From an uncultured Muribaculaceae bacterium (lineage in GTDB: Bacteria; Bacillota_I; Bacilli_A; RF39; UBA660): a DNA stretch of 64,000 bases. A program made the translations under genes and the position numbers. The stretch spans positions 7,825 to 71,824 of the forward strand of contig CAYNHT010000004.1 of assembly GCA_964397485.1 (NCBI GenBank), read 5' to 3'. Shown one piece after another: positions 6,589 through 39,334 of this stretch (its first letter is position 1; each line of letters starts with the position of its first letter). Under the pieces are notes generated by a model. It was not told the origin of the DNA. It did no database searches and was given only the letters and a program-made list of their open reading frames with translations.

Positions 6589-8709
6589 TTATTTAATTGC
6601 TTCTTTTCGTGATAAATTAAGTCTTCCTCTTTTATCATATCCTAAAGATTTAACAATTATTTCATCTCCGACTTTAACAACATCACTAGGTTTTTCAACT
6701 CTTTCCTCAGCTAAGTGTGACACATGGACTAAACCATCACATCCCGGCCATAATTCAACAAAGCATCCAAAGTCTTCTACTTTAACAACTTTACCAGTAT
6801 ATATTTGTCCAGTTTCAACTTCACGGATTGTATCTTTAATTAACTCCATTGCTTTATCTATAATACTATAATCTGAATGGTATATAATTACTCTACCATC
6901 ATCTTCTATATCTATTTTGACAGCATCTTTATCATTTACATTAACAACGTTACTAGCTTCTTGAATAATTTTTGTAATCGTTTCTCCACCTCGACCAATA
7001 ACATCTTTAATTTTTTCAGGATTAATTTTAAATTGTCTTATTTTTGGAGCATATTTACTTAATTCTTTTCTAGGTTCACTAATAACTGATTCCATTAAAT
7101 CTAAAATTTGCATTCTTGCTTTTTTAGCTTGAGTTAACGCTTCTTCTAATATTTCTTTAGTTACACCTTTAATTTTGATATCCATTTGTAAAGCACAAAT
7201 ACCATTACGAGTACCAGCTACTTTAAAGTCCATATCACCCATATGATCTTCTAGTCCTTGAATATCTGTTAAAATTGTATACTTATCATCTTTAGTTATT
7301 AATCCCATTGCAATTCCAGCAACAGGAGCCTTTATTGGTACACCAGCAGCCATTAATGATAAACATCCTGAACATATACTTGCTTGACTACTTGATCCAT
7401 TACTTTCTAAAATTTCCGAAACAACACGAATTGTATATGGAAATTCTTCTTCACTAGGTATTACTTGCAATAAAGCTCTCTCACCTAGCGCGCCATGACC
7501 AACTTCACGACGTCCTGGTGAACCATACCTACCAGTTTCTCCAACACTAAATTGAGGAAAATTATAATGAAGCATAAATCTTTTTTCTTCTTCAATTCCT
7601 AAACCATCTAGTATTTGATGTTCACCAAGTGCTCCTAATGTAGTTACTGCTAAAGCTTGTGTTTGTCCTCTTGTAAACAATGCAGAACCGTGTGTTCTAG
7701 CAAGTAAATCGATAGAAGCAGATAACGGCCTAATCTCATCCATTGCTCTTCCATCAGGACGTATATGTTCTTCAGTAATTAATCTTCTAACTTCATAAGA
7801 TTCAATCTCATCAACTACCTTAGAAACTTGTTTTAATATATTAGTCAATTTTTCGTTGCCTTCATAAACGCTAGTAAAATGTTCAATCGCATCTTCCTTA
7901 ACTTTATCAATAGCCGCATATTTTTCTAATTTTTCTTTAATTTGAATTGCATGTATCATTTTATCGGTTGCAAATTCTTTTACAGCAGCTTCAACTTCAG
8001 GATCAATTGTGTCTAAGCTAACAACAATTTTTTCCTTTCCTATTTCTTTCATAATCTCTGTTTGGAATTCAACTAATTCTTTAATAGCATCGTGTCCAAA
8101 CATTATAGCATTAATCATATCTTCTTCAGATACTTCCTCACTTCCAGCCTCAACCATGTTAACAGCATCTTTAGTACCTGCAACAGTTAAGTTAATATCA
8201 CTTTCTTCTAATTGGTCAGCTGTTGGATTTATAACAAATTGTCCATTAACCCTTCCGACAATAACTCCAGCAACAGGGCCAGAAAATGGAATATCACTTA
8301 TTGATAAAGCTAATGAAGACCCAAATAAAGCAGTCATTTCAGGAGTGTTATCTTGATCAACACTCAAAACAGTATTAATAACTTGTACTTCGTTTCTAAA
8401 ACCTTCTTCAAATAAAGGTCTAATTGGTCTATCTATCAATCTTGATGTTAAAGTTGCATTTTCAGTAGGTCGTCCCTCCCTTTTAATAAATCCACCAGGA
8501 ATTTTACCAACTGAGTACAGTTTTTCTTGATATAAAACCATTAATGGAAAGAAATCAGCAGTAATCGCATTCTTACTCATTACAGCCGCAGTTAAAACAG
8601 CAGTATCACCATACCTAACTAATACCGATCCATTTGTTTGTTTTGCTAATTCACCAGTCTCAACTATAATTGTTCTTCCTCTAAAATCTAATTCGTAAAC
8701 TTTCTTCAT
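6589..8709 (-). CDS. pnp: Polyribonucleotide nucleotidyltransferase (PNPase), 706 aa.
   Basis: Full-length similarity to PNPase: two RNase PH-like cores, KH domain, and an S1 domain at the C-terminus ([15 protein letters not shown]). Confidence 0.95.
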
Positions 8710-8775
8710 ATTTACCTCCCTTATTTTTGCAAAATAAAGACACTCGAAAAAGAGTGCCTACTATTTTATATTTAA

Positions 8776-9045
8776 TTATTTTCTTAAACCTAAACTTTTA
8801 ATAATTTCACGGTATCTAGTAACGTCTTTCTTTAATAAGTAATTAAGTAAACTACGTCTTTGACCTACTTTTTTAAGTAAACCTCTTCTAGAGTGGAAAT
8901 CATGTTTATGTTCTTTCAAATGTTCTGTTAAAGTACTGATTTCTTCTGTAAGAATAGCGATTTGAACTTCAGCAGATCCTGTGTCCTTTTCGTTTCTTGC
9001 ATACTTTTTAACAATACTCTCTTTAATTTCTTTTGATAAAGCCAT
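8776..9045 (-). CDS. rpsO: 30S ribosomal protein S15.
   Basis: 89 aa, MALSKE...[10 protein letters not shown]...LGLRK, a canonical S15 sequence. Confidence 0.95.
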
Positions 9046-9197
9046 AAATATTCTCCTTTCAAATCATATTCACTTAGACCGAGACTAAATCGGAGACGTT
9101 TAATCCAAGAATAAGTACAATAATAATATACACCATATTGGTAAATTATGCAAGTATTTGGATACATATTTATCTTTTTATTTAACTATAATAGACT

Positions 9198-10067
9198 TTA
9201 TATAAACATTTTCCAAGGTTTTATCTTATTAGTATCTTTTTCGTATTCATGATAAAGAGCTAAAATGTTACCACTTTTATCAATAAATAACATTTCTTTA
9301 ACACCATAAACATTATTGAATATTTTGCCGTTTCTTATGTCGCTCTCTAACTTTTCATCAACTACTATTTGTTTAATATTAGGTATACAGGCACGTATAT
9401 CAATTAAGTGATAATTGTTATTAATAATATCATCTATTTTAAAACAATCATCTAAATTTATTATACCCTGCTTTGTTCTAATCAATTCAGACATTACACC
9501 AATTGTATTTAATTTTTGGGCAATGTCATTTATCAAACTTCTAATATATGTACCTTTACTTACTAAACATTTTATTTTAAAAATAGTCTTATCGTCTTTG
9601 TACTCAACATCATCAATTAGTTCTAACTTTTTTATATTAACTATTCTTTTAGGTAGTTCTACTTTTTCGTTATTACGTACATATTCATAAAGCTTTTTCC
9701 CATTTATTTTAACAGCTGAATATATGGGAACTTCTTGTTCATATTCTCCATTAAAAGAATCTATTACTTTTAATATATTCTCTTTTTTAATATTAGCTAC
9801 CTCTTCTTTTATAACTTTACCAGTTATATCTAAAGTATCAGTTAATAACCCCAAAGTAACTTCTGCAATGTATTCTTTATCTTTATTAGTTATGATATCA
9901 ACTAATTTAGTTGCTTTCCCAACACAGATTACTAAAACACCTGTAGCCATTGGATCAAGAGTTCCTGTATGTCCAACTTTTCTAGTTTTTAAATGTTTAC
10001 CAACAATGTTAACTACATCTCTACTAGTATATCCTTTTTCTTTATGTACCAATAATATTCCATCCAT
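9198..10067 (-). CDS. truB: tRNA pseudouridine(55) synthase TruB.
   Basis: GxLxVxKxxGxTSxDVV N-terminus and the catalytic HTGTLDPMATGVL motif. Confidence 0.92.
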   Translation of the reverse strand: MDGILLVHKEKGYTSRDVVNIVGKHLKTRKVGHTGTLDPMATGVLVICVGKATKLVDIITNKDKEYIAEVTLGLLTDTLDITGKVIKEEVANIKKENILKVIDSFNGEYEQEVPIYSAVKINGKKLYEYVRNNEKVELPKRIVNIKKLELIDDVEYKDDKTIFKIKCLVSKGTYIRSLINDIAQKLNTIGVMSELIRTKQGIINLDDCFKIDDIINNNYHLIDIRACIPNIKQIVVDEKLESDIRNGKIFNNVYGVKEMLFIDKSGNILALYHEYEKDTNKIKPWKMFI

Positions 10068-13446: not shown

Positions 13447-13523
13447 GGACCCTTAGCTCAGCTGGTTAGAGCATCCGGCTCATAACCGGACGGTCGTAGG
13501 TTCGAGTCCTACAGGGTCCACCA
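13447..13523 (+). tRNA. tRNA with CAT anticodon, most likely tRNA-Ile2 (lysidine-CAU) rather than initiator tRNA-fMet.
   Basis: 77 nt cloverleaf GGACCCTTAGCTCAGCTGGTTAGAGC...GGCTCATAACCGG...GGTTCGAGTCCTACAGGGTCCACCA. The G1:C72 pair is fully matched, which argues against an initiator. Encoded CCA end. Confidence 0.8.
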
Positions 13524-13590: not shown

Positions 13591-14544
13591 TTATTTACGA
13601 ATAGCTCCATTTTCGCATTTATTCCCCCATGCATCAATTAATTCTTTATCTCTATGTATACAAATTATTTCACAGTTATTAGCACATTTCTTACACTCTA
13701 CTCCCCTTGTTTCGAAATGCATATCAGTTAGAGCAAAATCAAAATCATTTTCTTTTTTTGAATTTTTAGCTAATATTGCAACGCCTAATGCTCCCATTAA
13801 ATGTGCATATTTATCAACATGGATTTTTTCATTAGTTGCTTCTTCAAAAGCTTTAATGACTCCAATGTTTTTACTAACGCCCCCTTGAAATACAATAGGT
13901 GGTTTTATATTTTTTCCTTTTCCTACGTTATTTAAATAATTAGTAACAACCGCTTTACATAAACCAGCAATTATATCTTCTTTTTTATGCCCAATTTGAG
14001 CCTTATGAACTAAATCACTTTCAGCGAAAACGGTACACCTTGCAGCTATTTTGGTGGGATTTTTTGATTTTAATGCCCAATGTCCAAAATCTTCTACCTG
14101 TAATCCCAAACGTTTTGCTTGAGATGATAAAAATGAACCTGTACCAGCTGCACATAATGTATTCATCGCATAATCTACTACTATTCCATCATCAATTAAA
14201 ATTATTTTAGAATCTTGACCACCTATTTCAAAAATAGTTTTAACATCAGGATAAACAGATATCGTTCCAATGGCGTGAGCCGTAATTTCATTTTTAACAA
14301 TACAGGCATTTAGCATAGTTCCAACTAATTTTCTAGCAGAACCCGTTGTGCCAACTGCTTTTACTATTATATTAGTATTTTTTACTTGTTGTTTTAAATC
14401 ATTGATTAAATTTTTTACTGCATTAATAGGACTTCCTTCGGTCCATATATATTTTTCAGCAATAATCTTATTATTTTCATCAATTATTACACCTTTAGTA
14501 GATATTGAACCTATATCTACACCTAAATAAGCCTTTTTCATCAT
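13591..14544 (-). CDS. BadF/BadG/BcrA/BcrD-type ATPase (CoA-substrate-specific enzyme activase, HgdC-like) with an extra C-terminal Cys cluster.
   Basis: N-terminal GVDIGSISTKGV actin-like ATPase motif, GTTGSAR, and C-terminal CKKCANNCEIICIH. Overlaps the upstream gene by 4 nt (ATGA). Confidence 0.7.
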   Translation of the reverse strand: MMKKAYLGVDIGSISTKGVIIDENNKIIAEKYIWTEGSPINAVKNLINDLKQQVKNTNIIVKAVGTTGSARKLVGTMLNACIVKNEITAHAIGTISVYPDVKTIFEIGGQDSKIILIDDGIVVDYAMNTLCAAGTGSFLSSQAKRLGLQVEDFGHWALKSKNPTKIAARCTVFAESDLVHKAQIGHKKEDIIAGLCKAVVTNYLNNVGKGKNIKPPIVFQGGVSKNIGVIKAFEEATNEKIHVDKYAHLMGALGVAILAKNSKKENDFDFALTDMHFETRGVECKKCANNCEIICIHRDKELIDAWGNKCENGAIRK

Positions 14545-15617
14545 CTTTTTTCCTTTCTCATGCTAAGCATATCATGGAATGCTTCTAATCTTGTTTTAAT
14601 ACCTGTCTCACTTGTTTGTGAATCAAAACTAAAATATAATACAGGTATTTTATAGTCATTACTTATTTTTTGTAGTGCCGGCATAGCATTTATTTCAGGT
14701 ATGCAACCGAAGGGTTTTACATGAACAACACCATCATAACCTTGTTCAGCCAATAACTTTGTTCTTACTACACTATCAGTTCCATCAGCACCAATTTCAT
14801 ATTTCAAATATTTACCTGCATTTTTCATCAAATATTTTTTTATTTTACTATGATTAAATAATAGATATGTAACCGTTATAAACCGACTTACTACCATTCC
14901 TTTTTTTGCTAATTCTTTTTCAATATAGTAATTACTAAAAGGCTCCATCACTACATATAATTCTCCTACTACTCCTACTTTTAATGGATTCTCTGGTTTT
15001 TCAACTTCAATATTACGAAACATTTTATTATATTTTTTTGATATTTTAAAAAGATGTATAAAGCCTTTTACTTTTTTTAGTTCATTCAAAAACTCTTTCT
15101 TCAATTTTTCAAAACTACCTTCTTCAACTTCAAAACCAATATTTGATCTTATATATTCATCTATTTTATCCATAAGTACTATCATTCGTGCGGATAACAA
15201 AAAATAATAAGTAAATTTTATAAATGAAAGCCTATTATTTAACCTTTTAAAAGTTTTATAAAGTGAATGAGGTGTAATATCATCAGCATTAAGTAAACTA
15301 ATAAACTCAAATTCATATCCTAAATCTCTTAAAATTTGTTCTTGAATTTCTCCATAGTATCCAAATCTACAACCCCCACCCGCTTGAACCAACACATTTG
15401 CTTTCTTTTCTAACGCTTCGATATAGTTACCTAAATTATATTTAAAAGGTACACAGACAAAATCAGGACTATATTTAGAACCTAATTCTAATGTCTTTTT
15501 AGTTATTGGCGGTGGTTTTAAAATCTTCAAATCAGTCGTATGTTTTAACAGATATTCAATTACGACATGATAATCTCCCATGTGTGGGAAGCTAATTATT
15601 TTTTCTTTATTTCCCAA
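14541..15617 (-). CDS. Activase-associated, dehydratase-related protein (DUF2229 / 2-hydroxyglutaryl-CoA dehydratase D-component-like).
   Basis: 358 aa; FPHMGDY...SPDFVCVPFKY...VQAGGGCRFGYY motifs characteristic of this family; in operon with the activase ATPase. Confidence 0.6.
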   Translation of the reverse strand: MGNKEKIISFPHMGDYHVVIEYLLKHTTDLKILKPPPITKKTLELGSKYSPDFVCVPFKYNLGNYIEALEKKANVLVQAGGGCRFGYYGEIQEQILRDLGYEFEFISLLNADDITPHSLYKTFKRLNNRLSFIKFTYYFLLSARMIVLMDKIDEYIRSNIGFEVEEGSFEKLKKEFLNELKKVKGFIHLFKISKKYNKMFRNIEVEKPENPLKVGVVGELYVVMEPFSNYYIEKELAKKGMVVSRFITVTYLLFNHSKIKKYLMKNAGKYLKYEIGADGTDSVVRTKLLAEQGYDGVVHVKPFGCIPEINAMPALQKISNDYKIPVLYFSFDSQTSETGIKTRLEAFHDMLSMRKEKR

Positions 15618-16547
15618 TTATCTTTCCACCACCTTTTTCTTTTCTGTTATAATATCAATAAAACTTTCTATTCTAGTTTGCAATCCAGCTTCCGCTTGTA
15701 ATTCATCAAGTATTATATTTGCAATCGGAATTTTTTTTATCTTTCGCTGACATAATTCAGTAACAAGCGAATCAGGCCCACATGGGAAAGTTGTAATAAA
15801 AATAATACCATCTATTCTTTCTTGGTAATATTCAATAGCTCCTATTAATTCCTTATTATAAGTCCAATATAATCCTTTTGATATATTTATAGACCTTTTT
15901 ATTGTCTCATGTCTGTCAGCTATATCAGCAAATACAGGAAGAACTCCTAATTGTTCTAAATGCTTTATTATTGGATAACCAAGCAATTTATCATATGTAT
16001 TATATGGATGAGATACAATCAATATTTTAAGTTTGTCAGTACAATTTAAAATATCTTCTTGCCTTGTTGACATACGAATTTCCTCTTCTATTTCCTTTTT
16101 TTTAGCACAATCATAAGCTTCTAATGTTGTTTCTAGATCCTTATTTAATATTTTGCCCATGTTTATAAATGCATCTAATTCACTTTGATTTTTATTAACA
16201 TCAACATTATAGTCTAGGATTTTAACGTTTGAAAATGTGTTATTAACAATATCATATAAAGCATTAAATTTTGTACAAACAACTTCGTTTTTTCCAAAAC
16301 TGACAATCCTTGGGATTAAAATATAATCAACTTTATTAATTAAATAATGAACATGTCCCATATAAATTTTTGAAGATAAACAACTTTCATCAATTGAAAA
16401 ATTTATACCGTTTTTTAATATTTCTCTATTTGTTTCTGGGCTTAATATAATTTCACAACCAATTTGTTCGAAAAAAGTTTTCCATAGATATTGATACTTA
16501 TAATATAAAAAAGCTCTTGGCAAGCCTATCTTTATTTTGTTTTGCAT
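15618..16547 (-). CDS. 2-hydroxyacyl-CoA dehydratase-like (HgdB/BcrC/BadD family) protein.
   Basis: 309 aa; the IGLPRAFLYY...DESCLSSKIYMGHV...ILIPRI pattern is shared with the paralog at 36833..37747; first gene of a three-gene operon. Confidence 0.55.
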   Translation of the reverse strand: MQNKIKIGLPRAFLYYKYQYLWKTFFEQIGCEIILSPETNREILKNGINFSIDESCLSSKIYMGHVHYLINKVDYILIPRIVSFGKNEVVCTKFNALYDIVNNTFSNVKILDYNVDVNKNQSELDAFINMGKILNKDLETTLEAYDCAKKKEIEEEIRMSTRQEDILNCTDKLKILIVSHPYNTYDKLLGYPIIKHLEQLGVLPVFADIADRHETIKRSINISKGLYWTYNKELIGAIEYYQERIDGIIFITTFPCGPDSLVTELCQRKIKKIPIANIILDELQAEAGLQTRIESFIDIITEKKKVVER

Positions 16548-16732: not shown

Positions 16733-16817
16733 GCGGGTGTGGCGAAATTGGCAGACGCACTAGACTTAGGATCTAGCGCCTTACGGCATGGGGGTTCAAG
16801 TCCCTTCACCCGCACCA
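16733..16817 (+). tRNA. tRNA-Leu (anticodon TAG), type II tRNA with a long variable arm.
   Basis: 85 nt; GCGGGTG acceptor stem, anticodon loop CTTAGGA, long variable arm, GGTTCAAGTCC T-loop, encoded CCA. Confidence 0.85.
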
Positions 16818-21228: not shown

Positions 21229-22146
21229 ATGGACAATAATGAAATAAAGCAGTTAATCACGCAGTTCTCGCATTCTAAACCAGATACAATAGGGATATTT
21301 GGATATGGATCTGGAGTAAATAAACAAGCTGGTTATACAAATAAAGATAGACCACAAATCGATTTAATTATGGTAGTAAATAATACGGAAAAATGGCATC
21401 TTGAAAATATTAAGATTAATCCTGATAATTATTCTCTTACTTCTAAATTATTCTTTTCTAAGATAGATTCAAAATGGCAACATTTTGCAACTGACATATG
21501 CTATTTACCATATATTAAGGAATTAGGGCACACTTTTAAAATTGGTATTATAAGTAAAGATGATTTATTGAATGATTTATACAACTGGGAATCTTTTTAT
21601 TTAGCAGGAAGATTTCAAAAGATTATTTTACCAATTAAGAGTACTGCAGAGTTAGATGTAGCAATTTCTAAAAATAGAGAAAAAGCTATAACTATAGCTT
21701 TACTATTAATGAGAAAAAAAGAGTTGAATTTATATAATCTATTTAAAAAAATATGTTCGTTATCATATCTTGGGGATATAAGAATGGGAATAGCAGAAAA
21801 TCCAAAGAAACTAGATAATCTAGTTAAAGGTGGTTATGAAGAATTTAAAAAAATCTATTCTAACAGTAACTTATTTCAAATAGATTCAAATGAAAAAATA
21901 ATCATTAATCACGATTCATTATATTCATCTATGGAACAATTGCCTAAGAGTTTAATAACTCATTTAGAAACTAATAACTACTCATTAGAACAATTAATAA
22001 CATTAAGAAAATTGTTAATAGATTTTTTTACAGAGAAAAATAAACATGTTAGTAGAGACCAGGCTATAAAAGGTTTTTTTACTGCTGGTCCAGTTAATTC
22101 TATATCATATTTAACAGAAAAAATATTAAAGAAAATCAAAAAATAA
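21229..22146 (+). CDS. Nucleotidyltransferase-fold protein, possibly Tam41/Mmp37-like (phosphatidate cytidylyltransferase-like).
   Basis: 305 aa; GIFGYGSGV...QIDLIMVV (NTase G[SG]...D motif) and YLAGRFQK, as recalled for the Mmp37/Tam41 family. Recalled from memory, not searched. Confidence 0.35.
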   Translation: MDNNEIKQLITQFSHSKPDTIGIFGYGSGVNKQAGYTNKDRPQIDLIMVVNNTEKWHLENIKINPDNYSLTSKLFFSKIDSKWQHFATDICYLPYIKELGHTFKIGIISKDDLLNDLYNWESFYLAGRFQKIILPIKSTAELDVAISKNREKAITIALLLMRKKELNLYNLFKKICSLSYLGDIRMGIAENPKKLDNLVKGGYEEFKKIYSNSNLFQIDSNEKIIINHDSLYSSMEQLPKSLITHLETNNYSLEQLITLRKLLIDFFTEKNKHVSRDQAIKGFFTAGPVNSISYLTEKILKKIKK

Positions 22147-35718: not shown

Positions 35719-36873
35719 TTATCTGTTCCTTGTTTCATGTGCCATATGTCTAGAACTAGTTTTTGAAACATTACTATTTTTTTTCTTCATCTCTATCATA
35801 TCATAAAAAGCTTCAATTCTAGTTTTAATTCCAACTTCAGACGTATTTGAATCAAATGAAAAGAATATTATAGGCATATTATAATCACCACATATCTTAT
35901 TTAAAACAGGCATTGCGCCTATTTCAGGTGTACAAAATGAAGATTTTATATGAATAATACCATCGTACCCATTTTCACACAAATACTTAGTACGTGCTAT
36001 ATTATCAGTTGCATCAGCCCCCATTTTATACTTTACATATTCATAGGCATATTTGATTAATTTTTTTAATTCCTTTTTCTTTTCAAAGACTAAATAATGT
36101 ACATTTGTATATCTTTTAATTTCCATTCCATAACTTGCTAATTCTGTTTCTAAATAGTAATTAGCATATGGTTCCATTAATGTATATAACTCCCCTATTA
36201 GACCTATTTTTAAACAGTTATCTGGTTTGTTTATTTTTAGAGACTCAAATTTCTTTTTATATCTTTTATAACATAATCGTAGTCCTATATATGTTTTTAC
36301 TTTACTAAAATCTTTATACATTTGCCTTTGAAGTTTTATAAAACTATTCTTTTCTACCTCAAATCCTATATTTTGTCTAATATAATCATCAATTATATCC
36401 ATATATTTTATCATCTTAGATGTTATAAAAAGATAATACATTGCTTTAATTGGGTTAAATTTTTCATCTATATTCTTTATTTTTTTATAGATTTTTTTCA
36501 AATCTGTCTTTCCACAACTAACTAAATTTATAAAAGTAAAATCGTAACCAAGGTCCTTCAAAATCTGTTCTTGCAATTCACTATAATAACCATATCGACA
36601 ACCACCACCAGCTTGAATTAATATAGTAGCTCCTTTTTCTAAACTTTCTATCAATGTACCTATTGTATATTTAAAAGGAGTACAAACAAAATCCGGACTG
36701 TATTTAGTTCCTAATTCAATTGTTTTCGCACTTATTTTAGGCGAAGACATTATTTCACAACTCACTATTTTTTTCATTAAAAATTTAACAGGAATATCAT
36801 AATGACCCATGTGAGGAAAAGCAATAATTTGTTTAGTTGATGCTTTGTTTTTTTTGTCCAAGTATATCAACAA
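35719..36873 (-). CDS. Paralog of the DUF2229 / HgdB-like activase-associated protein at 14541..15617. Start uncertain; overlaps the upstream gene by 41 nt.
   Basis: FPHMGHY...SPDFVCTPFKY...IQAGGGCRYGYY aligns with the 14541..15617 product. Confidence 0.55.
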   Translation of the reverse strand: MLIYLDKKNKASTKQIIAFPHMGHYDIPVKFLMKKIVSCEIMSSPKISAKTIELGTKYSPDFVCTPFKYTIGTLIESLEKGATILIQAGGGCRYGYYSELQEQILKDLGYDFTFINLVSCGKTDLKKIYKKIKNIDEKFNPIKAMYYLFITSKMIKYMDIIDDYIRQNIGFEVEKNSFIKLQRQMYKDFSKVKTYIGLRLCYKRYKKKFESLKINKPDNCLKIGLIGELYTLMEPYANYYLETELASYGMEIKRYTNVHYLVFEKKKELKKLIKYAYEYVKYKMGADATDNIARTKYLCENGYDGIIHIKSSFCTPEIGAMPVLNKICGDYNMPIIFFSFDSNTSEVGIKTRIEAFYDMIEMKKKNSNVSKTSSRHMAHETRNR

Positions 36874-37747
36874 AACTTTCTAATCTAGTTTCTATTCCTG
36901 TTATTGAATTGATATCATCTATGATTAAATTGACATATGGCAAAGAGATTCTCCTCATTACTAATTCGTTTACTAATGAATCTGGTCCACACGGAAATGA
37001 TGAAACAAATACTATACCATCTATTTGACGTTCTACTAATTTAATTGCACCAATCAATTCTTTGTTATACTTCCAATATAATGTTTTGGACAATGATTTA
37101 GATAATTTATTGGTGACAACTGCATCAAAGCGATCTGCATATATTATTTCAACATCTAATTTTTTTAAAAAATTGGTAATTGGCATCCCCACATAATTGT
37201 CATAAATATTATATGGATGTCCAACTACTAGTACCTTAAGTTTATTACTACTTAACTTACTATAGTTAGTTAAAATTTGTTTTTTTCGTATTTTGTTTTG
37301 CTTTATTAAAGCTATTTGGTATGCTCTAATAACCTCAAATCTACTCTTTTTTAACTCTTTACCAATTTTTATCAACCCGTGTAACTCACTATTACCACCA
37401 TTAGTATCTATATTATAGTTGATAATTTTCACTTTGAAAGTATTGTTAACAATATCATAAAGACTTAAGAAATTAGTGCACGTTTGATTAGTAATACCAT
37501 AATTATCTATTCTAGGTATTAATAAAAAATCACATTTATCTTTTAAATAACTAACATGTCCCATATATATTTTTAAAGATAAACACATCTCATCATTTGT
37601 ATATTTGATTCCCTCATCTATTATATATTTAGTGGTATTGGGACTTTCTACTATTTCACAATCGAGTTCTTCAAAAAAATAGCGCCACATATCGATAAAA
37701 TAATAATAATATATACTCCTAGGAATTCCGATTCTTATCTTGTCCAT
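36833..37747 (-). CDS. Paralog of the 2-hydroxyacyl-CoA dehydratase-like protein at 15618..16547.
   Basis: IGIPRSIYYY...DEMCLSLKIYMGHV...LLIPRI aligns with the 15618..16547 product. Confidence 0.55.
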   Translation of the reverse strand: MDKIRIGIPRSIYYYYFIDMWRYFFEELDCEIVESPNTTKYIIDEGIKYTNDEMCLSLKIYMGHVSYLKDKCDFLLIPRIDNYGITNQTCTNFLSLYDIVNNTFKVKIINYNIDTNGGNSELHGLIKIGKELKKSRFEVIRAYQIALIKQNKIRKKQILTNYSKLSSNKLKVLVVGHPYNIYDNYVGMPITNFLKKLDVEIIYADRFDAVVTNKLSKSLSKTLYWKYNKELIGAIKLVERQIDGIVFVSSFPCGPDSLVNELVMRRISLPYVNLIIDDINSITGIETRLESFVDILGQKKQSIN

Positions 37748-38080: not shown

Positions 38081-39334
38081 ATGCAAATAAAACAATTAAC
38101 CAATGAAGAATTTAATAAGTTTTCTAGTCAGTACAACTTATATTCAATTTATCAAACAATTGAGTATGCTTTTGTTATGAATAATCAAAATTTTGATAGT
38201 TTATTTTTAGGTCTAATCGATGAAGATAGTAATATAATTGGTGCATCATTAGTATTAATTGAAAAAAGATATGGATTTAAATATGCATACGCCCCAAGAG
38301 GCTTTTTAATTGATTATAATAACTTTGCTTTACTACAAACATTTACTTATGAGATGAAAAAATATTTAGGACGCTTAGATGTAATAGCTATTAAAATTAG
38401 TCCATTAATAACTAAAGATGTATATGATCCAAATTATAAAATAAACGAGGATAATAATTATTATAATTCTATTTTTAAAAATTTAATCGATGTTGGTTAT
38501 TATCACCTAGGTTATAATAACTACTTTGAAGCGTTGAAGCCTCGTCATGAAGCCATTATTGATATAGACATGCCCTACTATTTATTGTTTAAGAATATCA
38601 AAAAAGAATTTAGAACTAAAATTAGGGGTGCTGAAAGAAATGGTATAAAAATATATAAAGGCAATGAGGATAATCTTGATTATTTATACCTACAAACTAA
38701 GAAAAAATATCCTAGGGATTTAAAATATTTCAAGGATATATATTTCTTCTTTTCTAAAAGAAACATGATTGATTTTTATTTTGCTAAACTAGATACTGAA
38801 AAGTTTTTGAAAATAACACAAAAAGAATATGAGAAAAATGAAGAAAATAGTGCCTTTATCAATAATTTAGTTATGACAAATCTAAGTAAAAATAATAATA
38901 AAATGATTAATAGGAAAATTAGTGCTGACTTTGCTTTAGAAAGATATAAAAAGCAACTTGTTAGTGCTACTAATCTATTAAGGGATTATCCAACTGGTGT
39001 TGTCATGGCTTCTGTCTTAGTAATAAAATATAGGGATACTGTTCACCTATTGATGGATGGTTATGACCCTAATTATAAGAATTTTAATGCAAAACATTTA
39101 TTGTTTTGGAAACTTATTGAAAGATACTCTAAGATGGGCTACAAAAAATTTAATTTAGGCGGTATCAGCAGTTTAAATATTGAAGATAACAAGTATCAAG
39201 GATTAAATGAGTTTAAATTAAATTTTGGTGCTAAGGCATACGAATATATTGGAGATTTAGAATTAGTTACAAATAGTCCACTTTATTTTATGTATCGTAA
39301 TGCAGCGCCAATTAGAAACATATTAAAAAAGTAG
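38081..39334 (+). CDS. FemAB-family aminoacyl-tRNA-dependent peptidoglycan branch-peptide transferase (FemX/MurM-like).
   Basis: 417 aa; coiled-coil insert in the middle; C-terminal VVMASVLVIKYRDTVHLLMDGYDP...KHLLFWKLIERYSKMGYKKFNLGGIS matches the FemAB core. Confidence 0.65.
   Translation: MQIKQLTNEEFNKFSSQYNLYSIYQTIEYAFVMNNQNFDSLFLGLIDEDSNIIGASLVLIEKRYGFKYAYAPRGFLIDYNNFALLQTFTYEMKKYLGRLDVIAIKISPLITKDVYDPNYKINEDNNYYNSIFKNLIDVGYYHLGYNNYFEALKPRHEAIIDIDMPYYLLFKNIKKEFRTKIRGAERNGIKIYKGNEDNLDYLYLQTKKKYPRDLKYFKDIYFFFSKRNMIDFYFAKLDTEKFLKITQKEYEKNEENSAFINNLVMTNLSKNNNKMINRKISADFALERYKKQLVSATNLLRDYPTGVVMASVLVIKYRDTVHLLMDGYDPNYKNFNAKHLLFWKLIERYSKMGYKKFNLGGISSLNIEDNKYQGLNEFKLNFGAKAYEYIGDLELVTNSPLYFMYRNAAPIRNILKK

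Follow-up and report, generated by a model that had tools for sequence, protein, structure and literature searches.

ATP-driven "archerase" systems perform reductions that rank among the hardest in biology, and only a few of their substrates are known. Among them, PlsA/PlsR is an anaerobic plasmalogen synthase with an Act1-Act2-Red1-Red2 (BBDH...) architecture (PMC12838417); it is encoded by CPE1194/1195 in Clostridium perfringens and by single-gene fused forms in Enterococcus, Lactococcus, Listeria, and Bifidobacterium, and Listeria has been reported to carry active pls orthologs (PMC9702350). Ger, the glycerol ester reductase (for example, Thermotoga maritima Tmari_0479 and Desulfatibacillum alkenivorans SHJ90043), also has a BBDH... 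architecture and makes alkyl-ether lipids anaerobically (PMC13159169; PMC8788747), and its BBD core is reported to be conserved in all alkyl-ether producers (PMC13159169). No other characterised DUF2229 proteins were found in the literature. The present analysis concerns a cassette of three genes in a stretch of 64,000 bp (the window) from an uncultured Muribaculaceae bacterium (contig CAYNHT010000004.1, positions 7,825–71,824), whose products are called D309, H358, and A317 here after their lengths. This cassette is a widespread, so far uncharacterised relative of the known kind of ether-lipid enzyme; no characterisation of the split family that it represents was found in the literature, and the database names of that family are generic or wrong ("2-hydroxyglutaryl-CoA dehydratase").

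From their domain content and predicted folds it is close to certain that all three proteins belong to the superfamily of class I benzoyl-CoA reductases (BCR-I) and 2-hydroxyacyl-CoA dehydratases (HAD), and that together they would make up a self-contained, three-component, ATP-driven iron-sulfur radical enzyme. At the level of this superfamily, the sequences support the ATP-driven electron injection that a preliminary description of the locus had proposed. The reading we prefer goes further and takes the cassette to be a split, PlsA/PlsR-like BCR-I/HAD radical enzyme that acts on a glycerolipid acyl ester; we give it a probability of roughly 0.45. The leading guess for the substrate, drawn loosely by analogy, is that it would most likely be a membrane glycerolipid acyl ester, which would be turned into a vinyl-ether (plasmalogen) or alkyl-ether lipid.

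A317 matches Pfam BcrAD_BadFG (1e-48) and TIGR00241, "acyl-CoA dehydratase activase" (7.5e-57), and its matches in the PDB include MbdQ (1.5e-42), HadI (2.9e-37), and HgdC (1.9e-36), as well as DCCP-R (7yyl_E, 3.3e-23), the reductase partner of the double-cubane-cluster proteins (DCCPs). The core of its AlphaFold2 model (residues 1–262) superposes on the first three of these (9gai_D, 4ehu, and 1hux, respectively) at 1.9–2.4 Å, and a Foldseek comparison with 9gai_D gives 2.6e-29 and an rmsd of 1.9 Å. A317 is a BcrAD_BadFG ATPase of the ASKHA fold, and each monomer has two conserved Cys, C131 and C170 (both 100% conserved in 55 orthologs derived from the loci described below), which we take to be the HgdC positions that ligate the [4Fe-4S] cluster bridging the dimer.

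D309 matches Pfam DUF2229 (7e-45) and, weakly, HGD-D at its C-terminus, and H358 has a C-terminal HGD-D match of 2e-8 (34.6 bits, cutoff 28.4) together with a weak DUF2229 match. The two families are paralogous over their full length (hhalign 97.9%, E 4e-13), a relationship that parallels that of the α and β subunits of HAD, or of BzdO and BzdN. A sequence search of the PDB with D309, alone or as a family profile, gave no significant match; the only significant structural neighbours of its AlphaFold2 model (predicted local distance difference test score, pLDDT, 93) in a Foldseek search are DCCP, HadC, MbdON, and BzdNO. In the PDB the H358 family profile matches the HadC β subunit (3o3m_B, 2.5e-6), DCCP (0.012), and BzdN (0.14), the similarity to HadC being limited to the last ∼65 residues. 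Thus, D309 by its model and H358 by its family profile are two paralogous catalytic subunits with the two-domain α/β fold of HAD, BCR, and DCCP. The preliminary description had placed the three products in the HgdB/BcrC-like, DUF2229, and BadF/BadG/BcrA/BcrD families, and the Pfam and NCBIfam searches bear out the three domain families (HGD-D, DUF2229, and BcrAD_BadFG), the 309- and 358-aa proteins falling in DUF2229 and HGD-D. If it listed the genes in the order of transcription, however, its HgdB-like and DUF2229 labels were apparently swapped, since the 309-aa protein is the DUF2229 one, and its term "activase-associated protein" is too weak for D309, which is a full catalytic-type subunit and a paralog of H358.

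Three Cys, and no more, are invariant in each catalytic subunit: C56, C91, and C256 in D309 (in the motifs DESC, VCTKF, and FPCGPD; 81 homologs) and C55, C83, and C305 in H358 (100% of 79 homologs). The first triad is also present in Red1 of fused Listeria and Paraclostridium proteins and the second in Listeria Red2. With C131 and C170 of the ATPase, these are the candidate ligands of the predicted Fe-S clusters; a count of such Cys was proposed when the locus was first described. In BzdO, Cys95, Cys128, and Cys380 hold a catalytic [4Fe-4S]-OH2 cluster on three Cys (PMC11971306), and, judged by residue conservation, the three-Cys sets of D309 and H358 are the pattern of open-site catalytic [4Fe-4S] clusters. 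The class I benzoyl-CoA reductases (BzdNOPQ and MbdONPQ) resemble the cassette in that MbdQ is the best match of A317 in the PDB by sequence and fold; they differ from it in that their ATPase is heterodimeric (P/Q) and that BzdN carries an [8Fe-9S] cluster on six Cys where H358 has three, and the cassette lacks an aromatic-degradation context.

DCCP chains are the top Foldseek matches of the D309 model (7yzm_A, 3.5e-8; HadC, 7e-7), and this, along with the weak profile match of H358 to DCCP and the homology of A317 to DCCP-R, could be taken to mean that the cassette encodes a DCCP/YjiM-like protein which reduces small molecules at an [8Fe-9S] cluster and is served by A317 as its ATP-dependent reductase. 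However, the six- or seven-Cys motif is absent, there being three conserved Cys per subunit; the double_cubane model NF040772 gives 12.7 bits against a cutoff of 350; and DCCPs are homodimers, whereas the cassette encodes two distinct paralogs. For comparison, the published [8Fe-9S] motif of DCCPs is CX19CX18-19CX29CX166-170CX32-34CX32C (PMC7317905). An activity of this kind is extremely improbable.

A genuine 2-hydroxyacyl-CoA dehydratase of the HgdAB/HadBC/FldBC/LcdAB type, acting with its activator in amino-acid or lactate fermentation, would account for the 30–35% identity of A317 to HadI, HgdC, and MbdQ, for the match of the H358 C-terminus to HadC, and for the name that databases give to the homologs. 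By analogy, the likeness to HadBC/HadI and HgdAB/HgdC may extend to a homodimeric archerase with a bridging [4Fe-4S] cluster, a heterodimer of paralogs with three-Cys clusters, and a ketyl-radical logic, and the ATPase cores superpose at about 2.3 Å. The closeness to these dehydratases assumed in the preliminary description does not hold up in the catalytic subunits, however: the HadC equivalog model NF052456 gives 19.1 bits against a cutoff of 700 and covers no more than the C-terminal 65 aa, a PDB sequence match is lacking for D309 as noted above, and both proteins are presumably 50–170 aa shorter than the Had and Hgd subunits. The DUF2229 module and the Cys-rich tail of A317 (see below) are common to fused Pls-type enzymes and absent from the solved HAD activators. 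Known HAD systems act on CoA esters, and their operons include CoA-transferase and dehydrogenase genes. The cassette is not in an operon with CoA-transferase and 2-hydroxyacid dehydrogenase genes, and in a survey of 80 related loci from species-representative genomes CoA-transferase-like genes occur at only two and a dehydrogenase/transferase context is not conserved, although in Desulfitobacterium dehalogenans genes for a thiolase, a CoA-transferase-like protein, and an iron-type alcohol dehydrogenase are found close to the cassette. When all flanking open reading frames (ORFs) were clustered, no neighbour was conserved at more than 14 of the 80 loci. The lack of pathway context remarked for the window is borne out; the lack of a conserved acyl-CoA pathway context counts in favour of a split PlsA/PlsR-like enzyme. 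A role as a fermentative dehydratase is very unlikely.

Among the fused proteins compared, the closest to the cassette in sequence are of the DUF2229-containing kind that includes PlsA/PlsR and Ger. The comparison used a fused 1475-aa Listeria protein as a stand-in for the characterised C. perfringens, Enterococcus faecalis, and T. maritima sequences; its gene lies on a piece of chromosome kept among plasmid records, several of which (L086 NZ_LR134399.1, NZ_CP030101.1, NZ_CP084075.1, NZ_CP154629.1) are chromosomes or large parts of one, for example a 2.9-Mb Listeria record. By BLASTP, A317 is closer to Act2 plus the following linker (32% identity, 5e-49) than to Act1, D309 matches Red1 (residues 670–982; 24% identity, 4e-14), and H358 matches Red2 (residues 1032–1230; 4e-13), and all Cys ligands, those of the tail motif included, are conserved between the split proteins and this fused form. 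The cassette thus has in common with PlsA/PlsR its modules (BcrAD_BadFG, and a DUF2229 (PF09989) Red1 followed by an HGD-D-type Red2), its Cys ligands (as compared with Listeria), the Cys motif after the last activation domain, and a self-contained nature without accessory pathway genes. It differs in being split into three genes in the order Red1-Red2-Act rather than Act1-Act2-Red1-Red2, and in having one ATPase domain on a separate downstream gene rather than two fused in tandem N-terminal to DUF2229, the separate downstream ATPase gene being the arrangement at most of the 80 related loci; it also differs in having several paralogous catalytic pairs per genome and in being known from sequence alone. 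Ger, compared here by its description, likewise has the Pfam content B, D, and H, and anaerobic ATP-dependent ester-to-ether chemistry has been proposed for that scaffold (PMC13159169), but Ger is a single BBDHDDH polypeptide, whereas the cassette has a single B on a gene of its own. A fused 1282-aa BBD(H) protein is encoded on Paraclostridium bifermentans plasmid pHD0315_2-2 (L087, 4204–8052) next to genes for an ABC transporter, cupins, hemerythrin, ferredoxin, and hcp; its Red1 is 25% identical to D309 and keeps the Red1 Cys triad, all three Red2 Cys and the four-Cys linker motif are lost, and it may be a degenerate or re-purposed variant.

The C-terminal tail of A317 contains the motif CKKCANNCEIICIH (residues 284–297) in the overall layout C284-x2-C287-x-N-x-C291-(x3-C295)-...-W-G-N-x-C310. 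In the 55 orthologs C284, C287, and C291 are 100%, C310 98%, and C295 91% conserved, and T279, N289, E292, D304, W306, G307, and N308 are further conserved residues. The Cys-rich tail that the preliminary description pointed out is real, but it is not, as was said there, additional to the family. The Listeria protein has the same motif (SRCNLCSNTCQLTVTRFGDDRMFVSGNRCERG) in the linker that joins its second ATPase domain to DUF2229, and the pattern C..C...C(12-30)G[ND].C (that is, CxxCxNxC...GNxC) is present in all of 120 fused proteins (Listeria, Paenibacillus, and Bacillus relatives from a homology search seeded with the Listeria protein), where it falls at ∼residues 604–640 directly after Act2, and in 118 of 120 split-family ATPases. 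It also occurs in a distant three-gene system of Monoglobus. Because the motif is common to the split-family ATPases and the fused proteins, the tail is, on this distribution, an ancestral signature of the branch and not an extra. It was not found described in the PlsA/PlsR/Ger literature.

The tail has no counterpart in solved archerases, with which the alignments end at about residue 262, and a search of the PDB with a tail profile gave nothing meaningful. In the AlphaFold prediction, which is of moderate pLDDT (66–76), the tail is made up of a strand, a Cys loop, and a β-hairpin, and we take the CX2CX3C...C spacing and this topology to resemble the Fe4S4 domain of molybdopterin oxidoreductases. 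An origin of the tail from that domain (Molybdop_Fe4S4) was considered and rejected, as only the Listeria linker matches PF04879, at an E value of 0.056 that falls below the cutoff; the likeness is kept as a mere resemblance.

If the cassette works as its relatives do, A317 would form a homodimer whose two monomers hold a bridging [4Fe-4S] cluster between them through their C131 and C170 residues, in place of the fused Act1-Act2 pseudo-dimer. It would take an electron from ferredoxin or flavodoxin, possibly via a metal site in the four- to five-Cys tail, and ATP hydrolysis would push this electron at very low potential onto a D309/H358 heterodimer of pseudo-symmetric build. Each paralog would hold a [4Fe-4S]-type cluster on its three Cys with one iron open; one cluster would relay the electron, and the other would bind the carbonyl oxygen of the substrate, giving a ketyl radical and then reduction and/or dehydration. 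The DUF2229 subunit is suspected to carry the catalytic cluster because the Paraclostridium fused variant has lost the Red2 triad and the tail motif and kept the Red1 triad. In this genome, two ATPases of this kind appear to serve at least three catalytic pairs.

The cassette lies among housekeeping genes and is kept in metagenome-assembled genomes (MAGs) labelled as "Bacilli" (presumably reduced-genome lineages) or as members of the candidate phyla radiation (CPR), and this fits a substrate present in every cell. Several points weigh against the reading as a split PlsA/PlsR-like lipid enzyme. Identity to the Listeria enzyme, itself only a proxy for the characterised proteins, is 24–32%, below the 41–55% identity to C. 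perfringens PlsA/PlsR at which orthologs have been called (PMC12838417), and in a neighbour-joining (NJ) tree the split family forms one compact clade, which a long branch separates from the fused Red1 domains. None of the 150 best 50%-identity cluster representatives of D309 is a BBD-type or fused protein of >1000 aa, no lipid gene is conserved beside the cassette in the 80 loci, and the tail may bind either [4Fe-4S] or Zn. The three paralogous pairs in one genome (see below) suggest diversified specificities. Finally, "additional PlsA homologs" without an activation domain, whose role is unclear, have been noted in Bacillota in a 2026 paper in which PlsA and Ger were inseparable by sequence (PMC13274423). 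The cassette proteins probably belong to this set, and a substrate of another sort would gain in likelihood if such homologs occur together with a bona fide plsA.

Several of these points agree with another explanation, namely that the same ATP-driven radical reductase/dehydratase architecture acts on something other than a lipid or a 2-hydroxyacyl-CoA, and that the family is a new functional branch beside PlsA/Ger; candidate substrates would be a ubiquitous small metabolite, a cofactor, or a nucleoside- or tRNA-linked group. The long branch, the low identity to the Listeria enzyme, the multiple pairs, and the activation-domain-less homologs found alongside full PlsA/Ger in Bacillota (PMC13274423) can all be read in this way, as can the conservation of the ATPase, which is the most conserved component (63–85% identity across classes), the housekeeping and translation genes among the neighbours (cysS, truB, rpsO, pnp, argS, ileS, and topA), and the existence of TudS, a superfamily member that acts on nucleotides (PMC11971306). 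However, the conservation of neighbours is accounted for by the kinship of the MAGs, the full cofactor set is common to the Listeria Pls-type enzyme, and positive evidence for any specific alternative substrate is absent. This explanation is a real possibility, somewhat less likely than the split PlsA/PlsR-like reading.

D309 has more than 2,800 relatives in a word-indexed search, the closest 120 of which are all stand-alone proteins of ∼300–356 aa with 55–72% identity, and 439 among 50%-identity clusters at E ≤ 1e-30; none of its relatives in GTDB species representatives exceeds 68% identity. The hosts of the 80 loci include Clostridium, Desulfitobacterium, Desulfosporosinus, Romboutsia, Anaerovorax, Defluviitaleaceae, and many uncultured "Bacilli" or "Tenericutes" MAGs. 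Four CPR-labelled MAGs (L047, L048, L077, and L084, labelled Staskawiczbacteria, Saccharibacteria, Patescibacteria, and Berkelbacteria) form a clade of their own in the NJ tree; their CPR origin is by label, and such a separate grouping of the homologs appears to speak against contigs of Firmicutes having simply been mis-binned. Throughout the 80 loci D lies next to H, with the exception of loci cut at a contig end and of one locus with an insertion of ∼3.3 kb between the two genes (L034, 6915–10203), and natural D-H fusions of 670–750 aa exist. Another locus (L011, 5983–10017) has the order D-H-H-A: its two H paralogs lie in tandem, and its ATPase is divided between two ORFs (possibly through a frameshift).

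The order cassette-cysS-truB-rpsO-pnp is common to the window and three "Bacilli bacterium" MAGs (L020, L021, and L027), whose CysS and PNPase are 72–84% identical to those of the window; gene order and identity together put the window close to these MAGs. In one clade without an ATPase gene (L022, L024, L035, L044, L058, L060, L075, L081, and L085; ∼8000–9500), D and H are followed by two tandem Vut_1 genes, which we take to encode YhhQ-like vitamin or queuosine-precursor transporters, and by an S24/HTH repressor gene, and are preceded by argS and a gene for a small acidic-tailed protein. These frequent neighbours (the two Vut_1 transporters, argS, an RNA-polymerase delta-like gene, and the S24 repressor) were considered as functional context and rejected, being confined to one clade of related MAGs; the Vut_1/argS arrangement probably reflects synteny within a lineage and not a link in function.

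The remark in the preliminary description that the window holds few other anaerobic-metabolism genes is incomplete, since a second paralogous catalytic pair lies at 35719–37747 (Table 1). Its Cys triads are intact as in D309 and H358; the start of its HGD-D member is uncertain, there being an alternative TTG at 36864. The pair sits between a FemAB-family gene (38081–39334, plus strand) and a downstream gene labelled topA from its translation only. No ATPase gene lies beside it, a search of the window with A317 having matched only A317 itself, and in the NJ tree it groups near a clade of 14 loci likewise without an adjacent ATPase; presumably it depends on an ATPase encoded elsewhere. A third, full cassette (312, 355, and 318 aa) is present on another contig (L089/L090, 6018–8957), very likely from the same genome, and its ATPase is 81% identical to A317 and has the same Cys tail. 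The genome thus probably carries three catalytic pairs and two ATPases. The flanks of the third cassette contain ileS and genes for a sigma factor, a DUF2935 protein, a ClpX-like AAA protein, and an Amidase_3 protein, and farther along the contig lie genes for a STAS protein and a sigma factor; these sporulation-type genes suggest a spore-forming member of the Bacillota.

The three genes of the cassette are tightly packed, and the gap of 0 nt and the ATGA overlap previously described for them are confirmed, as are their positions and strand. The D309 stop codon TAA (15620–15618) is followed directly by the H358 start codon TTG at 15617, and the H358 TGA and A317 ATG overlap as ATGA. Public gene calls differ at the H358 start (region 15582–15617), some using an ATG 12 codons later (346 aa) in place of the TTG (358 aa). 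The TTG start and the 0-nt gap stand because residues F10 and P11, at least 97% conserved in 79 homologs, would be lost with the ATG start, and because a ribosome-binding site (AAGGTGGTGG) is present upstream of the TTG. The neighbouring cysK, cysS, and tRNA genes are as the locus was first described and supply no pathway context. Upstream of the operon no Rfam element, riboswitch, or leader was found, and scans for promoter and terminator consensus sequences at the operon gave no excess over shuffled controls. An Rfam match to the plastid ycf2 5′ untranslated region (Plastid-ycf2 5'UTR; 13447–13521, minus strand) is antisense to tRNA-Met and, at 43 bits against a gathering threshold of 65.7, was discarded as a tRNA artefact. 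The only lipid gene near the cassette, 4.7 kb from it (21229–22146, plus strand), encodes a Tam41_Mmp37-type (mitochondrial-type) phosphatidate cytidylyltransferase (Pfam 4.4e-65); it is not found beside the cassette at other loci. Such a cytidine diphosphate-diacylglycerol synthase is of an uncommon type for a bacterium.

Table 1. Coordinates in the window of the cassette, its flanking genes, and the second catalytic pair
Feature	Coordinates	Strand	Description
Gene 1, D309 (309 aa)	15618..16547	minus	DUF2229 catalytic-type subunit, Red1 equivalent
Gene 2, H358 (358 aa, TTG start)	14541..15617	minus	HGD-D-type paralog of D309, Red2/PlsR equivalent
Gene 3, A317 (317 aa)	13591..14544	minus	BcrAD_BadFG "archerase" ATPase
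A317 C-terminal tail (residues ~266–317)	13594..13749	minus	Conserved Cys motif; predicted metal-binding mini-domain
tRNA-Leu	16733–16817	plus	Operon upstream flank
tRNA-Met	13447–13523	plus	Operon downstream flank
cysK	13310–12342	minus by coordinate order	Operon downstream flank
cysS	12251–10845	minus by coordinate order	Operon downstream flank
Second DUF2229 paralog (304 aa)	36833..37747	minus	tblastn 6e-89, Pfam 1.3e-40; 47% identical to D309
Second HGD-D paralog (384 aa from TTG 36873)	35719..36873	minus	tblastn 2e-122, Pfam 4.6e-11; 51% identical to H358

The general idea with which the locus was first described is right, and its family assignment should shift from an HgdB/BcrC-like dehydratase to a split, permuted, single-ATPase relative of PlsA/PlsR and Ger. 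A wider scenario, speculative and on present evidence rather unlikely, is that this housekeeping-grade cassette, found from Clostridia to CPR-labelled MAGs, would carry out either a PlsA-independent remodelling of ester to ether lipids (in wall-bearing reduced-genome anaerobes and lipid-scavenging CPR) or an entirely unknown radical reduction, and that in either case one or two ATPases, docking via a previously undescribed four-Cys Fe-S mini-domain, would serve several interchangeable catalytic pairs in trans. The Cys motif offers a handle on electron entry into PlsA-type enzymes or on the docking of the activator, and the link to the plasmalogen and ether-lipid synthases, module by module and through the four-Cys motif, makes the lipid hypothesis experimentally testable. 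Homology to Ger and PlsA has been used in published surveys to predict producers of ether lipids and branched glycerol dialkyl glycerol tetraethers (PMC13159169; PMC13274423). Such surveys risk false positives if the split family acts otherwise, and overlook producers should it prove a lipid enzyme.

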